A stretch of 57,151 bases of DNA from a virus. Position 1 is the first letter of the stretch. Each line of letters opens with the position of its first letter. Below are positions 51,277-55,703 of the stretch, piece after piece. The position numbers and the translations under genes are program-made. The stretch is from IMG/VR virus record IMGVR_UViG_3300035211_000082, positions 1 through 57,151 of that record, one strand, 5' to 3'. Below the pieces are notes generated by a model that was not told the DNA's origin, ran no database searches, and saw only the letters and a list, made by a program, of their open reading frames with translations.

Positions 51277-53409
51277 TTATTTTAATATTTTTCTTAACTT
51301 ACTAACAAAATTAGTTTTTCTAGTCCAGTCTAAACTTTTTCTACAAATTTCAAATATTTCTGATTGATTTTTAGCTAATATTATGCAGTTTTGCTTTGCT
51401 CTAGTTATTGCTGTATATAGCAACCTATGATCACTTATGCAATTATTCTGTAACAATATCAATACGCTTTTGCTCTCTGAACCTTGCAGCTTATGCACTG
51501 TACAAGCATAAGCATACACAATTTTCTTAAGCTCACTATTTTTAAATATAATCCTAAGATTTAAAAAATAAAAATATATTGTTGTTTCTTTCTTTGTAAC
51601 ATGTTCAACTATGCCCATGTCTCCATTAGATATGCCTTTTTCACGATCATTTTCTAAGTTAATTACTTTATCATTAACCCTAAATTTACATTTCTTAAGT
51701 TCAGGATTGACATTGTCTTTAACCTTGTATTTCTCATTTATTGTTTCTCTAGTTTTATTTGTTATAGTTGCAATTTGGAAATTTTTATAAAATTCCAAAA
51801 CATTGCTATACTTACTCTTAAATTTAAAGTATATCTTTTCAATTAAGTCCTCTTTCAACTCGCCTATAAAAAATTCAGCAGTTTTTATAATATCAATCTC
51901 TTTTTTGTTCCTTACTTTTTTTGCATTCTTAATTATAAGGCTGTCCTTGGCTTGCCTAAATGTCTCAGGCAAGTGCAAATGTGTAAAACATTTGCTTTCA
52001 ATCAAGTCATTTAATACCTGACCGCAGCCAACGCTTGGAAGCTGGAATGGATCACCAACAAATAATATTTTTTCAAATTTTAATCTGACCTGGTTTAACT
52101 TGTTGATTGTTTTTAATAGCCTGTAAAATAAGTGTTGATCAATCATACTGCTTTCATCTACTACTATTATTTTTTTATTTGTTCTTAGACTAAATCTATC
52201 TAATACTGCACTTGCACTTACTAATGTCTCCATAAACTCTATATAACAAACTAGGCTATGTATTGTAAATGCTTTTTGGTTTGCGCATTCTGACAATCGG
52301 CAGGCTGCTTTGCCCGTCGGCGCTAAAAGCAATGATGAATAATTAAATTTGTTCAAAACATCTAGTAATGCGCTTGTTATAGAACTCTTGCCTGCCCCTG
52401 CCCCGCCAGTAAGAATTGATATATTGTCTCCAAATGTTATTTTTGATAACGCTTCTTTTTGGCTGTCTGCTAATTCAAGATTATTGTAATTTTCAAAATC
52501 TTTGATTGAGTCTTGAAATGTTTCGACATTTATATCATTTTGTTCTATTATTTGATATTTATTAAACTGCGCCAGCAAAGAAGGACTTATAGTCTCAGCT
52601 TCGAATATTTCTTTTAGATAAACTTTTTTATCTTCTGTCTCAAGCAATTCATTCTTGTCTATAAAATCATCTACCGTTTCGTTTGCTGGCAAATACCTAA
52701 CCTCATTTATCAGGTATTCCTTGAACTCGCTGAATTCAACATAATTACTGTTCTTGCTGTTAAATTGTTTAAACTTATGTTCAACCAAATATTTATTTCT
52801 TTCTGTATTATCTAAGCTAATATTTAATTTTGTCCTGGCAATTTCATCAACCGCTAAGAATCCTATGTTTAACTTAGATAAGTACTTGTATGGCTGATCA
52901 TACAACTGTTCTAAGCTCCTAATCGACTTACTTAATTTGCTTGCATAATTATAATTATCAATTATGCAAGCGATCTCGGCTGTTATGTTTTCGGCCTCAG
53001 CTTGTTCCAACTTTTTCAAAACTAACTCTGACTTTTTCGGACCTATTCCTTTTATCTTTTTGCCAGCCTCGACATGATTTATAAAGTCTTGGGCTGATTC
53101 AAACTTATATGTTTCAAACATTTCATCAATTGATTTCCTGGTTATGCCCTTAATCTCCGACAGAATACATTTGAAGTATTCTGTGCTTTTTGTGTCTACT
53201 TTTTGGTATTTAACCCAAATTGTTTTGCCAAAACTATTTTCTGTTTGAGATCCTTCGACTATTATGTTAGGCAATAATTTTAATTCTATGCCCTGTATTG
53301 CTAATGTTATGTCATCAGCTACAAATGCACCTGGTTTATAAAAGTTCCAGTCTGATTTCGCTGGTGCTTTATAGAAATTATATTCGTTGTTGTTGAATTG
53401 ATATTCCAT
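51277..53409 (-). CDS. RecD-like SF1 DNA helicase (AAA_30 + UvrD_C-like) with N-terminal HhH
   Basis: 710 aa; IKGIGPKKSELVLKKL; Walker A ILTGGAGAGKSS; IIVVDESSMID; YACTVHKLQGSE; YTAITRAK. Confidence 0.8.
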   Translation of the reverse strand: MEYQFNNNEYNFYKAPAKSDWNFYKPGAFVADDITLAIQGIELKLLPNIIVEGSQTENSFGKTIWVKYQKVDTKSTEYFKCILSEIKGITRKSIDEMFETYKFESAQDFINHVEAGKKIKGIGPKKSELVLKKLEQAEAENITAEIACIIDNYNYASKLSKSIRSLEQLYDQPYKYLSKLNIGFLAVDEIARTKLNISLDNTERNKYLVEHKFKQFNSKNSNYVEFSEFKEYLINEVRYLPANETVDDFIDKNELLETEDKKVYLKEIFEAETISPSLLAQFNKYQIIEQNDINVETFQDSIKDFENYNNLELADSQKEALSKITFGDNISILTGGAGAGKSSITSALLDVLNKFNYSSLLLAPTGKAACRLSECANQKAFTIHSLVCYIEFMETLVSASAVLDRFSLRTNKKIIVVDESSMIDQHLFYRLLKTINKLNQVRLKFEKILFVGDPFQLPSVGCGQVLNDLIESKCFTHLHLPETFRQAKDSLIIKNAKKVRNKKEIDIIKTAEFFIGELKEDLIEKIYFKFKSKYSNVLEFYKNFQIATITNKTRETINEKYKVKDNVNPELKKCKFRVNDKVINLENDREKGISNGDMGIVEHVTKKETTIYFYFLNLRIIFKNSELKKIVYAYACTVHKLQGSESKSVLILLQNNCISDHRLLYTAITRAKQNCIILAKNQSEIFEICRKSLDWTRKTNFVSKLRKILK

Positions 53410-53417
53410 AGCTTAAT

Positions 53418-53700
53418 CCGTTAAACAAAACTTATAAAAACTTTATAAAAGTTATTCATCTTGTCTTATAAAGGTAATAGTAAAAGACAGGGTTTAACCG
53501 TTAAACAAAACTTATAAAAGTTAATAAAGCTTATTCCTCATTCATTACGTCCCATTTGGTATAATCTTTAAAGATTATAGCTACTTTGGTTTGATATAAC
53601 GCTCCAAAGGCTTAAATTCCCGTATAACGCACGGTACACATTAACATTATCTTTCAAATGATACTATGCTAATTTTGATAAATTTATTGCAGCATTTAAA
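53418..53700 (-). ncRNA. candidate TnpB omega-RNA scaffold region (overlaps the tnpB 3' end and runs to the right end)
   Basis: Minus-strand stems ccgt..acgg, ctttgg..ccaaag, ataatcttt/aaagattat downstream of the tnpB stop; the position matches known omega-RNAs; exact ends unknown. Confidence 0.45.
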
Positions 53701-54791
53701 TCTCTATCAATCATCAAACCACAATCACATTTATAAATCCGGTCTGATAATTTTAAATCTTTCTTTATTTGCCCGCATGAGCTACACATTTTAGAGCTCG
53801 GAAACCACCTATCAGCCTTGACTAAATTAATTCCATAAAATTTAGTTTTATATTCCAATATATTTGCAAATGTATATAAACATTGTTCTTGTATAGCTTT
53901 TGATAAATGTCTATTTTTCATCATTCCTGATATATTTAAATCTTCAATTACTATATTTTGTGGTTTGGTTTTCACCAAAGATGTAGTAATTTGATGAATA
54001 TTATTCAATCTAATATTAGTCAATCTTCTATAAATAAGCTTTATTTTCTTTTTAGTTTTCATAATATTTTTAGTCTTGTTATAACGGACTTCACCACCTT
54101 TCATTTTAATTTTATTCTTTTCATATTTACGACTTACTTTTCTTTGTAATCTCTTAAGCTTCTTTTTAATCTTTTTAACAGAGCTAGTTTTATTAATATT
54201 TTTATACTTTTCACCTGTATTAATAATTGCTAAATCTTTTATTCCTAAATCAATTCCAATAGTTTTATCTGTCAATTCTTGATATTCTGTTTCTACTTCA
54301 ATTCCAACTGATAAATACCAATACTTGCTATCATGTGTTATTCTAGGATTTTTATATTTTGTATCTACAGGTATTCGTTTTGGTTCTGATAATTCAATCC
54401 ATCCTATTTTTTCAATCAATACAGATTTTTCTTTGACCTTTAATTTCTCACAGTCATTGTAAAAACTTGTTTTACATTTATTCTTTTTCTTAAATTTGGG
54501 CTGTTTAGCTTGCCCTTTAAAAAATCTCTTATATGCTAAACATAAATCTTTAACAGCTTGTTTTGGTACATTATTAGATATTTCATTTAACCAGGCTAAC
54601 TCAGTTTTCTTTAATTGTGTTATTTCTTTTCTTAAGTCGTTGTCAGATATAAATTTCCCGCCATTTTTGTAATTAACTAATTGTTTATCTAAGGCCCAAT
54701 TGTAAATATATCTTGCTGTTCCTGAAGCTTTCCAAAATAATTTTTCTTGTTCTTCTGTAGGTTTTAACCTAACTTTTATTGCTTTTATCAT
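53664..54791 (-). CDS. tnpB: TnpB RNA-guided nuclease, catalytic residues intact
   Basis: MIKAIKVRLKPTEEQ...; RuvC-I IGIDLGIKD, RuvC-II IVIEDLN, zinc finger CSSCG...CDCG, RuvC-III IDRDLNAAINL. Confidence 0.85.
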   Translation of the reverse strand: MIKAIKVRLKPTEEQEKLFWKASGTARYIYNWALDKQLVNYKNGGKFISDNDLRKEITQLKKTELAWLNEISNNVPKQAVKDLCLAYKRFFKGQAKQPKFKKKNKCKTSFYNDCEKLKVKEKSVLIEKIGWIELSEPKRIPVDTKYKNPRITHDSKYWYLSVGIEVETEYQELTDKTIGIDLGIKDLAIINTGEKYKNINKTSSVKKIKKKLKRLQRKVSRKYEKNKIKMKGGEVRYNKTKNIMKTKKKIKLIYRRLTNIRLNNIHQITTSLVKTKPQNIVIEDLNISGMMKNRHLSKAIQEQCLYTFANILEYKTKFYGINLVKADRWFPSSKMCSSCGQIKKDLKLSDRIYKCDCGLMIDRDLNAAINLSKLA

Positions 54792-54921
54792 TCCCCACCT
54801 GCTCAATTTTCTCATCTAAAATACGTCTAATCAATTCAGCGAGTGGAATCCCCTTCTCTTTTGCCATTTTTTCAAGAATATTATGCTGTATTTCAGATAA
54901 ATAAATCTGAAATCTTCTCAT
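54769..54921 (-). CDS. ribbon-helix-helix (CopG-like) protein overlapping the tnpB start (50 aa; not in ORF track)
   Basis: gaggtgttaat ATG; MRRFQIYLSEIQHNILEKMAKEKGIPLAELIRRILDEKIEQVGNDKSNKS. Confidence 0.6.
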   Translation of the reverse strand: MRRFQIYLSEIQHNILEKMAKEKGIPLAELIRRILDEKIEQVGNDKSNKS

Positions 54922-54952
54922 ATTAACACCTCATTTCTTTAAATATATGTTT

Positions 54953-54981
54953 ATTATACATTTAATAAGCGTATATGTAAA
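54953..54981 (-). promoter_or_regulatory. promoter TTTACA-N17-(TGt)ATAAT for RHH-tnpB, inside the element left end
   Basis: minus strand: tttacatatacgcttattaaatgtataat. Confidence 0.5.
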
Positions 54982-55152
54982 TACTATAAAAGTATTAATA
55001 TTTATAACTTTTATAAAGTTTTCTTTAACAGTTAGCTGCCTCCAAAATTTTAATCTATATTAAGATAACTAACTTGTCGAAACAGTCTCAAAATCTGTTA
55101 AGATATCAAAATTTCGAGTACAATTTCGACCAGTTATTTTTTTGAAATTCCA

Positions 55153-55605
55153 TTATACTAAATCTAAATCAACATATCCTGTATCAGCTTTCCCAAGCCA
55201 AGAATCAAATCCATCTTCGTTTATTTCTTCCAAGATAGACTCTATATCTTCTATTTTTAAATTCCATTCTTTTTTATTTATATATTCATCTAGATTCTCA
55301 TTTACTTTTTCATCTAACGCATATTGCTCTAATTCCTCAGGTATTTCTTCGTCTTCACTATTCAACCTTTTTATTTCTTCAAATTTTTCCCAATCCTTTG
55401 GTCTTTCTACTTCTGACGTATTTGCATTATAATTTACAAAAACTTCTATTCCTTCAAAGTGATATGCTACTTCAAATGAATCTTCGCAATCTGGTCCTGA
55501 CCAACTTGTCCCAGCTTGAAATTTAAATATTTTGCTTTTAAGCATTTCTAACAATTCACATTTATCAATTCTCATAATTCTTGTAAGTCTTATTTTATCT
55601 CCCAT
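55153..55605 (-). CDS. highly acidic protein (150 aa)
   Basis: ggaggattaaac ATG; C-half very rich in D/E (EDEEIPEELEQYALDEKVNENLDEY...). Confidence 0.55.
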   Translation of the reverse strand: MGDKIRLTRIMRIDKCELLEMLKSKIFKFQAGTSWSGPDCEDSFEVAYHFEGIEVFVNYNANTSEVERPKDWEKFEEIKRLNSEDEEIPEELEQYALDEKVNENLDEYINKKEWNLKIEDIESILEEINEDGFDSWLGKADTGYVDLDLV

Positions 55606-55636
55606 GTTTAATCCTCCAAAATTTTAATATACATAT

Positions 55637-55665
55637 ATTATATACCATTGTAAATTAAAAGTCAA
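55637..55665 (-). promoter_or_regulatory. member of the conserved promoter family TTGACT-N17-TATAAT
   Basis: minus strand: ttgacttttaatttacaatggtatataat. Confidence 0.6.
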
Positions 55666-55703
55666 TTGTATGTTGTGAGTAATATTAATTTAATTGTTGC
55701 ATT

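Follow-up and report, generated by a model that had tools for sequence, protein, structure and literature searches.

A TnpB element separates the Shine-Dalgarno sequence of a phage helicase gene from its start codon

The phage sequence analyzed here, IMG/VR record IMGVR_UViG_3300035211_000082, is 57,151 nt long with 29% G+C, and this whole stretch is referred to as the window. It contains a gene for a RecD-like superfamily 1 (SF1) helicase (51277..53409) and, directly upstream of it, an inserted element of 1,621 bp (53418..55038) that carries a tnpB gene, a small ribbon-helix-helix (RHH) gene and a guide-RNA scaffold. All coordinates of the helicase locus and the element refer to the minus strand. 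The helicase open reading frame (ORF), opened by the ATG at 53409, is intact and encodes 710 amino acids (aa), the same length as its 86%-identical homologue P0004, and a profile search revealed AAA_30, AAA_19, RecD-like SH3_13 and UvrD_C_2 domains.

We examined both junctions of the element. The left flank, read as ...ATAGATTAAAATTTTGGAGG or GATTAAAATTTTGGAGG and closing with TTGGAGG, ends at 55039 and is followed by CAGCTAACTGTTAAAG... from 55038, while at the right junction ...TTTTATAAGTTTTGTTTAACGG (ending at 53418) meets ATTAAGCTATGGAATATC (from 53417). The occupied site thus has the form GGAGG/...AACGG/, with GG at both junctions, which leaves the boundary free to shift by as much as 2 nt, and without any target duplication. 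The element parts GGAGG (55039..55043) from the ATTAAGCT-ATG of the helicase. A homology search with the helicase yielded proteins of 86% and 75% identity, and their contigs show the site without the element: ...TTACTGGAGGGTTAAATTATGGAATATCAATTTGAC, that is TGGAGG-GTTAAATT-ATG, in L168 and L169 (86%), and GATTAAAATCTTGGAGGATTAAAACCATGGAATAT, that is ATTAAAATCTTGGAGG-ATTAAAACC-ATG, in L170 (75%). In all three, an uninterrupted GGAGG stands 8-9 nt ahead of the helicase ATG. Because the upstream 17-mer of L170 differs from the left flank GATTAAAATTTTGGAGG by one mismatch and continues directly into ATTAA...ATG, the element sits exactly between the Shine-Dalgarno (SD) sequence and the 8-nt spacer of the helicase gene. 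These results confirm the placement that the original prediction had proposed from the window alone, including the 2-nt GG ambiguity and the lack of a target duplication. The homologous sites also identify GGAGG as the original helicase SD and the left-flank target, with its last GG as a putative recombination core dinucleotide.

When the products of the helicase gene, tnpB and the upstream gene were looked up as exact proteins, nothing but this genotype, insertion included, came back, in two contigs of identical context. Among GenBank phages and IMG/VR, a close relative of this phage was not found; helicase matches reached at most 28% identity, and TnpB alone had a match, to transposases of Staphylococcus Twort-like phages at ~73% nucleotide identity.

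Without the element, the rebuilt helicase leader reads GGAGGATTAAGCTATG. We found 12 copies of GGAGGATTAA, the consensus ribosome-binding site (RBS), in the window, against 0.18 expected, a number reached in none of 100 shuffles, and these copies include the RBS sites that had been listed earlier. The 21-mer ATTAAAATTTTGGAGGATTAA stands, as had been stated, before the gene at 55605, which is preceded by ATTAAAATTTTGGAGGATTAAACATG. This enrichment and the leader of the 55605 gene show that the rebuilt helicase RBS is a genuine recurring style of this phage's genome. A crude count gave an SD match of 4 nt or more for roughly two thirds of the window's ORFs. The helicase is now preceded by only ...AACGGATTAAGCT, in which CGGA, 7 nt before the ATG, is the sole SD-like residue.

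Upstream of the split SD lies a weak promoter-like sequence, TCGACA-17-TAGATT (55052..55080, 9/12 matches), possibly the native promoter of the helicase, and L170 has TTGACT...TATTAT at the equivalent position. The 55605 gene (55626-55665, minus strand) and the helicase (55052-55080) share a promoter-plus-leader cassette ending in ATTAAAATTTTGGAGGATTAA, which the helicase leader of L170 carries as well; it resembles an early/middle expression signal that is repeated in this phage group. Another helicase homologue, P0005, has 1,032 aa and matches at 85% identity across just 53% of the query, and may contain an intein or other insertion.

The element encodes an apparently intact TnpB nuclease and a RAGATH-18 scaffold

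The tnpB gene (53664..54791) encodes 375 aa with HTH_OrfB_IS605, OrfB_IS605 and Cas12f1-like_TNB domains. Its RuvC D/E/D motifs (IGIDLG, VIEDL and DRDLNAA) and its CxxC...CxC zinc finger align with those of solved TnpBs (8iaz_A and ISDra2), the best structural match being 8iaz_A (E = 2e-77), an entry cited in the paper on the ISFba1 TnpB-reRNA-DNA structure (PMC11061315), and it scored 289.8 bits with NCBIfam guided_TnpB (cutoff 100). As read from the alignment, the positions matching the ISFba1 contacts K83, N121 and Y117 with the target-adjacent motif (TAM) are conserved, and those matching K80 and N122 differ. By these motifs TnpB appears nuclease-intact, in agreement with the original prediction. 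A nuclease-dead TnpB-like repressor (TldR) was ruled out, since all three RuvC catalytic residues are present.

A covariance-model search for the guide RNA (omega RNA or reRNA) matched the RAGATH-18 motif at 53534..53610 with 59.2 bits against a gathering score of 44.9. This motif, the core of the scaffold, is the only Rfam match in the window; it starts 54 nt past the tnpB stop without overlapping the ORF, and it also lies downstream of tnpB in 19 of the 20 relatives scanned. Just upstream is a "nexus" hairpin, CCGT-GCGTTAT-ACGG (53620..53634), in which pairing of the loop CGUUA with UAACG, at the 3' end of the scaffold, can give a pseudoknot. Such a pairing has been described for IS607 omega RNAs and was found by mutational study to be essential for an IS607-type TnpB (bioRxiv 10.1101/2023.11.20.567912). 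One position of the pseudoknot covaries, being A-U in the window and L099, G-C in most copies and G.U in L086 and L102, and the A-C combination was absent among the sequences parsed. These pairs come from an anchored parse; an automated re-extraction picked wrong hairpins and was not used.

A second, different TnpB (374 aa, no HTH_OrfB_IS605 match) was found at L165:4999-6123, in an unrelated phage with its own RHH-TnpB element (see below), and in close relatives of the window phage at L168:7915-9039 and L169:4232-5356 (both minus strand). By their sequences, these phage groups thus appear to carry several TnpB lineages.

A small RHH gene takes the place of tnpA

The left end of the element (54991..55038) consists of the AT-rich units CTGTTAAAG-AAAACTTTAT-AAAAGTTATAAAT, which, by a repeat search and by comparison with homologous left ends, form imperfect inverted repeats with both of two right-end copies, an inner and an outer one (I1, 44 nt, 73%; I2, 26 nt, 88%). 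With the outer right end, the left end shares a perfect inverted match of 19 nt. A promoter-like TTTACA-17-TATAAT (54953..54981, 11/12 consensus matches) precedes the RHH gene, and no terminator-like site was found on the minus strand between this promoter and the helicase.

The RHH ORF (54769..54921, 50 aa) occupies the place of the relatives' tnpA, and its 3' end overlaps the tnpB start. It matched DUF6290 (29.4 bits) and RHH_1 (21.9 bits). We also considered a RelB-like type II antitoxin, but only the N-terminal RHH part matched, weakly (27.8 bits against a cutoff of 50), there was no full-length match, and the adjoining downstream gene is tnpB rather than a toxin; the ORF resembles just the DNA-binding N-terminal part of RelB/CopG-type proteins. 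We infer a small DNA-binding protein that acts as a transcriptional regulator of the element's own promoter (autoregulation).

A database search with the RHH protein returned three clusters only, at 79-93% identity and all of 44 aa, and those having context lie directly upstream of TnpB in phage contigs, including L165 and L167. No RHH homologue was found near TnpB among ~160 TnpB loci at 32-62% identity, so that the pairing appears limited to a small subgroup. Between the window copy and L165, the proportions of nonsynonymous and synonymous differences in the RHH gene were pN = 0.069 and pS = 0.53, which indicates purifying selection on the RHH gene, although the two TnpBs are only ~55% identical. 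In L165 and L167 the RHH stop and tnpB start overlap as ATGA. At TnpB identities of at least 87% we found three architectures, namely tnpA_S-tnpB, tnpB alone (P0127) and RHH-tnpB, and the conserved RHH gene of 44-50 aa in place of tnpA is a new feature. A TnpB-only element (L192-L201, TnpB 87% identical) recurs in ten samples (JGI, NCBI, Logan) at one and the same position, where the distance from AGGAGG to the start codon is only ~38 nt.

The element had moved recently within this phage group, to judge by L167, a 714-nt contig of a related phage: there a left end and RHH gene 95% identical to those of the window follow a different GGGAGG, downstream of another small ORF.

Context and ends assign the element to the IS607 family

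Several features of the element are those reported for IS607 transposons. RAGATH-18 has been reported only with IS607 TnpB, and a scaffold that begins after the ORF rather than overlapping it is a listed difference from IS605 (PMC11061315). IS607-type serine recombinases use a GG core dinucleotide that is kept at both junctions (bioRxiv 10.1101/2023.11.20.567912; PMC4227781), and IS607 ends have been described as imperfect AT-rich inverted repeats (PMC4227781). In phage-like contigs L171-L183, the closest TnpBs (P0125-P0128 and P0131, 87-88% identity) directly follow a MerR+Resolvase TnpA of 204-218 aa; TnpB relatives at 51-62% identity adjoin the same gene, and every relative having a transposase has a serine recombinase. 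In the window, an ORF survey and a tblastn search for serine recombinases found no tnpA of either type (Y1 or serine recombinase), as had been predicted. Since the 87-88% relatives have such a gene and the window does not, the element is non-autonomous, in common with many IS607/IStron copies already described.

Taken together, we consider it likely that the insert is a non-autonomous IS607-family transposon, carrying a guide RNA and TnpB, that inserted at the GG ending the helicase SD and follows a homing or retention logic. With RHH in place of tnpA and a tandem right end, it is a new architectural variant of the IS607/RAGATH-18 TnpB transposon.

Related elements repeatedly land between an SD core and a start codon

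The experimental TAMs of 23 RAGATH-18-type TnpBs are 5'-AGGAG or 5'-GAGGG (PMC11061315). We read the flanks of 29 independent insertions, comprising the window, L167, L165, a mini-element in L164, L171-L183, L192 and 18 more distant copies. Because left ends placed by automated inverted-repeat alignment hit internal left-end-like sites in IStrons, flanks were read from motif-anchored extractions instead. The results showed that the left flank ends in GG in 28 of the 29 insertions and in GAGG in 21. Given the GG ambiguity, the NGAGG flank is consistent with the published motif within a 1-nt register. The suggestion that the TAM overlaps the SD is thus supported by the window flank TTGGAGG, the published TAMs and the GAGG of the 21 flanks. 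In multi-copy relatives of Haloimpatiens and Clostridium the right end is ...TTATAACTTTTTATAAGTTTTATGCAACGG/ and the left junction ...(R)GAGG/TAACTAACAGTTA.

On the other side, a start codon follows the right end within 3-10 nt in the window, L165, the L164 mini-element, L171, L173, L179, L185 and at least nine more distant relatives. For the autonomous L171, L173, L179 and L185 the distance is 6-9 nt; in the at least nine distant relatives an ATG stands exactly 7-8 nt after AACGG and opens a frame. In a second, unrelated phage (L164/L165/L166), an RHH-TnpB element has ...GATGAGG on one side and TTGAAAAATG, where a WDGH-domain gene starts, on the other. The same phage carries a TnpB-less mini-element of ~400 nt (L164:990-1400, minus strand) with GGAGG before it and AAGATGATG, which starts a DUF5131 gene, after it; it has a left end, nexus, RAGATH-18 and right end, and its guide region is 85% identical to that of the window. 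The ORF upstream of this mini-element now ends at a TAA within the element's left end.

In the window itself, 29 of 47 GGAGG sites (62%) have a start codon within 3-10 nt followed by at least 50 open codons. Since the TAM and the transposase target are the SD core (G)GAGG, the family would land between SD and ATG by default, and RBS-splitting is therefore what the published TAM predicts. It is a systematic, expected outcome for this clade rather than a one-off. By calling the placement new, the original prediction made it out to be rarer than it is, although we found no paper stating this consequence of the TAM, and a literature search linking IS607 or TnpB to SD or RBS targeting returned nothing relevant.

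L171 and L178/L179 have one and the same upstream flank (...GTAACCAAGTGAAAAGGAGG/) but different left-end variants (TTAACGACTG versus TGATTGACTG) and different downstream flanks; such elements may act as joints for recombination and mosaicism between phages.

A duplicated right end offers two candidate guides

The 22-mer TTTTATAAGTTTTGTTTAACGG occurs twice, ending at 53498 and at 53418, 80 nt apart, while all other copies examined have a single right end. The duplication is therefore a second new feature of this element. The inner right end (53498..53533), the 36-nt 3' flank of the scaffold ending in ...TTTTATAAGTTTTGTTTAACGG, is homologous to the right end of all relatives, and in an alignment with six relatives it lacks one ~12-nt repeat unit found at 87-88% identity. 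The tnpB stop lies 164-215 nt from the right end in most relatives, and 166 nt from the inner and 246 nt from the outer copy here.

The sequence between the two ends is an 80-nt module (53418..53497) with a left-end-like start TTAAACCCTGT, a hairpin TGTCTT...AAGACA, a RAGATH-3'-like ATGAATAA and the second right end AACTTTTATAAAGTT-TTTATAAGTTTTGTTTAACGG. Its start resembles left ends such as TTAACGACTGT of L171. Its right end is complete, and the subterminal 19 nt are those of the perfect inverted match to the element's left end. Either an older mini-element left the module as a relic, or it arose by partial duplication. The module also contains a 12-codon mini-ORF (ATGAATAAC...GTTTAA, 53421-53459, minus strand) that has no SD of its own and whose stop lies 11 nt ahead of the helicase ATG; that it serves re-initiation is speculative. 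At L184:272-346, a ~75-nt solo relic of a right end resembles the module, starting inside the RAGATH-18 3' end, ending ...GTTTAACGG and preceded by unrelated coding-like sequence.

If the inner end is used, right-end alignment places candidate guide 1 at 53478..53497, the 20 nt TTAAACCCTGTCTTTTACTA, also written TTAAACCCTGTCTTTTAC and beginning TTAAACCCTGTC...; if the outer end is used, candidate guide 2 is the 20 nt ATTAAGCTATGGAATATCAA (53398..53417), which begins ATTAAGCTATGG... and covers the helicase start codon. Neither guide 1 nor the 42-nt unique stretch between the right ends had a match in the window, 200 fetched loci, viral contigs or JGI metagenome contigs. For guide 2, the empty sites read GTTAAATTATGG (L168/L169) and ATTAAAACCATGG (L170); compared with the guide, and with ATTAAGCT, they differ at seed positions 1, 6 and 7 in L168/L169 and by an indel in L170. 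In the RAGATH-18-type IS607 TnpB family, mismatches at guide positions 1-13 are not tolerated (PMC11061315), and for this reason none of the observed empty-site relatives would be a target.

Both right-end copies are able to form the nexus pseudoknot, and thermodynamic folding of the 3' region, which cannot model a pseudoknot, did not discriminate between them (z = +0.5 and -0.9). Judging by positional homology and by the order of RNA transcription, we favor the inner end as the scaffold end, which makes a guide beginning TTAAACCCTGTC... more likely than one beginning ATTAAGCTATGG.... The original prediction had taken the latter as the native guide, matching the helicase start of relatives without the insertion. 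The first part applies only if the outer end is used, and the inner copy is the one at the position homologous to the relatives' scaffold end; the second part did not hold for the relatives observed, given the seed mismatches and the indel.

These two ends also allow a different account of what moved, in which the mobile unit runs from the left end to the inner right end (55038-53498) and was inserted at this GGAGG in a phage in which an 80-nt relic of an older mini-element already preceded the helicase. The kind of element would be the same, and only guide and target would differ: the guide TTAAACCCTGTC... would target relic-only alleles, with no homing into pristine sites. We regard this account as a serious possibility, if just short of probable. 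It fits the canonical distance of the inner end and its alignment with the right end of every relative, the fact that L086, an autonomous relative, likewise has a 36-nt linker behind RAGATH-18, the module's left-end-like TTAAnnnCTGT (the left end of L171 starts TTAACGACTGT) and the occurrence of solo right-end relics elsewhere, as in L184. Any inserted copy moreover leaves the TAM upstream of it intact, so that the site would remain a target. However, no relic-only allele was found in the databases searched, and the two 22-nt termini are 100% identical, a better fit to a recent duplication than to an old relic. All three units of the repeat are present at the outer end, which also forms the better inverted repeat with the left end, and 80 nt is less than the ends of roughly 40 + 60 bp needed for efficient IS607-type excision (bioRxiv 10.1101/2023.11.20.567912).

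Discussion

We propose the following mechanism for the IS607-type transposon described here. A TnpA_S supplied in trans would generate a circular intermediate that recombines into the GG ending the helicase SD GGAGG; entry by recombination at GG would account for the GG at both junctions and for the absence of a target duplication. The operon would be transcribed from the internal sigma-A-type promoter and probably also by read-through from the phage promoter, and, with no terminator in between, the internal promoter would raise helicase transcript levels. TnpB would bind a scaffold made of the nexus hairpin, RAGATH-18 and the 3' flank ending in UAACGG, with roughly 16-20 nt past the scaffold 3' end as the guide. 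The complex would then cut an SD-like TAM (NGAGG) followed by a guide match, that is, the same site without the element, and spare the occupied site, where ACGG stands in place of a GAGG TAM. In co-infecting or recombining phages, repair of the cut from the element-bearing genome would copy the element in. Under the inner-end choice, the guide TTAAACCCTGTC... would direct the complex to an allele carrying only the 80-nt module. Homing between phages is plausible, and the original prediction was sound in its homing logic.

A more far-reaching version is that the RHH-TnpB cassette is a phage-specialized homing element without a transposase, whose SD-type TAM makes the RBSs of co-infecting phages its landing pads, whose RHH protein controls both the nuclease and the captured downstream gene, and whose duplicated right end gives one scaffold two guides, for the relic-bearing and the pristine allele. 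We put this forward as an improbable, speculative extension. If true, a transposon end would here have given rise to a minimal repeat-spacer-repeat arrangement.

Several observations weigh against an active homing transposon of the IS607 family. With no TnpA_S in the window, its current mobility depends on an unseen helper. A 1-nt deletion in the RHH ORF (54769-54800, minus strand; GTGGGGAATGA versus ATGGAAAAATGA in L165/L167) abolishes the ATGA overlap, moving the stop 20 nt into tnpB and adding 6 codons. The guide is ambiguous, as there are two right ends, of which guide 1 is matchless in the databases and guide 2 is matched only imperfectly in relatives. The insertion removed the SD from the helicase and left only CGGA, and no translational mechanism that would offset the cost to the phage was found. 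For this element, the proposed cleavage, TAM, guide loading and homing are all carried over from its relatives. Finally, NCBIfam IS607_TnpB scored 195.8 bits and IS200_TnpB 273.3 bits, both under their own cutoffs; the protein alone does not assign the family, and we weighed this point as minor beside the context evidence.

Some of these observations would suit a decaying, immobile passenger that came into the RBS a single time, lacks a helper transposase and whose TnpB and RNA are no longer useful to element or phage. The missing tnpA and the frameshifting deletion at the 3' end of the RHH ORF point that way, as do a right end rearranged and duplicated unlike that of all other copies and the presence of the element in a single phage genotype (the two contigs of identical context). 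Yet TnpB has its full length and every catalytic residue, the core of the RHH protein is both intact and conserved, and the promoter, scaffold and pseudoknot are intact. In addition, the 95%-identical copy at another site in L167 shows recent movement, and autonomous helpers whose TnpBs are 87-88% identical are in circulation among phage-like contigs. We therefore find a passenger unlikely.

Co-option by the phage seems to us more doubtful still. Under this explanation RHH, TnpB and guide would serve the phage, either by cutting competitors at the helicase RBS (exclusion) or by tuning helicase expression. It draws on the RHH-TnpB pairing in at least two unrelated phage backbones with RHH replacing the transposase, on a strong internal promoter that reads into the helicase without a terminator, and on candidate guide 2, which spans the helicase start codon. 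But copies stand at different sites in different phages, as expected of a mobile element and not of a fixed phage function, the nuclease is of the active type by its motifs, unlike the known domesticated TldR regulators, and no competitor allele matching either guide was found.

The lost SD would cease to be a problem if the element were an IStron, in which a group I intron splices the element from the mRNA and restores GGAGG-N8-ATG (ATTAAGCT) in the RNA. Relatives at 51-55% TnpB identity (L111-L133) are indeed IStrons, L114 matching Intron_gpI (RF00028) with 92.9 bits, and the right end finishes in G, as omega-G would. With L114 as a positive control, however, no group I intron match was obtained at E <= 10 in 52800-55700, nor at the gathering score in the window, and the left end lies just 117 nt from the RHH start, against an intron of ~650 nt in the IStron relatives; this explanation is very improbable. 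In IStron relatives such as L111, L114 and L115 we observed an internal left-end-like TATGCATAAAACTTGTAAGAAGTTATAAAT that is complementary to their right end and lies ~163 nt upstream of tnpB, as though an older IS left end had gained the intron on its outer side.

Hardest of all to credit is an IS200/IS605 (IS608-type) element with subterminal hairpins that a Y1 TnpA would mobilize in single-stranded form, the resemblance drawn in the original prediction: palindromic AACTTTATAAAAGTT-type motifs near both ends and the higher, if sub-cutoff, IS200_TnpB score speak for it, but the attribution is wrong because of the RAGATH-18 scaffold starting clear of the ORF, the GG core and G-rich rather than T-rich target GGAGG, the AT-rich inverted repeats and the MerR+Resolvase TnpA of the relatives, without a Y1 (HUH) TnpA in the window.

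Among known systems, the transposon is closest to ISFba1 (PDB 8IAZ; Ren et al., Cell Res 2024, PMC11061315), with which it shares a TnpB of ~375-390 aa, a RAGATH-18 wholly downstream of the ORF, a G-rich SD-like TAM (AGGAG/GAGGG) and a GG target. Unlike ISFba1-type elements, it has no TnpA_S, carries RHH at the tnpA position and a duplicated right end, and resides in a phage replicon; its scaffold 3' flank is 36 nt long, compared with 64 nt in ISFba1. The autonomous copies in L171-L183 share a nearly identical right-end terminus (...TTTATAAGTTTTGTTTAACGG), matching nexus and RAGATH-18 and the same left-end plan, and they are likewise inserted after AGGAGG/GGAGG, often 6-9 nt before a start codon. 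They differ in having a MerR+Resolvase TnpA that overlaps the tnpB start, one right end with an extra repeat unit and no RHH.

Group B IStrons (CboIStron; CbISt3/4 of the C. botulinum phages c-st and D-1873; PMC4227781, bioRxiv 10.1101/2023.11.20.567912) resemble the element in their GG core, scaffold end ...CGG and nexus pseudoknot; they too occur in phages, and tnpA-less copies are common. Self and non-self are distinguished at the TAM position, as shown for CboTnpB with TCGG versus TGGG, the corresponding pair here being ACGG versus GAGG. In contrast to these IStrons, the window element lacks a group I intron, its interrupted RBS is not repaired in RNA, and its TAM is GAGG and not TGGG.

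The proposed logic is that of homing by IS605-family TnpBs (Meers et al. 2023, PMC10055086; ISDra2, IS608), with a guide from the right-end flank, a TAM equal to the transposase target, cutting of the empty site and restoration of the element by recombination. The IS605 family differs in its Y1 single-stranded-DNA transposase, T-rich targets, omega RNA overlapping the tnpB 3' end and subterminal hairpins instead of AT-rich inverted repeats. There is also a likeness to free-standing phage homing endonucleases and intron-less homing endonuclease genes (T4 seg/mob), selfish nuclease genes that sit between phage genes and spread in co-infection by cutting the vacant allele. Unlike those, target recognition by the window element would be RNA-guided and TAM-dependent, and insertion would be by a transposase at a defined dinucleotide.

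These findings suggest that the SD core is the biological meaning of the RAGATH-18-type IS607 TAM, which is not spelled out in the literature we found. In AT-rich, strongly SD-dependent genomes, such elements land between the RBS and the start codon. SD targeting would also explain the self-splicing intron of some relatives, since splicing repairs the RBS, and it raises the question of how intron-less copies before a replication helicase are tolerated. The locus offers a compact natural test case for RNA-guided homing from phage to phage, for a conserved RHH partner, and for a duplicated end with a choice of guide, and that choice bears on the origin of CRISPR-like repeat-spacer units from TnpB elements.

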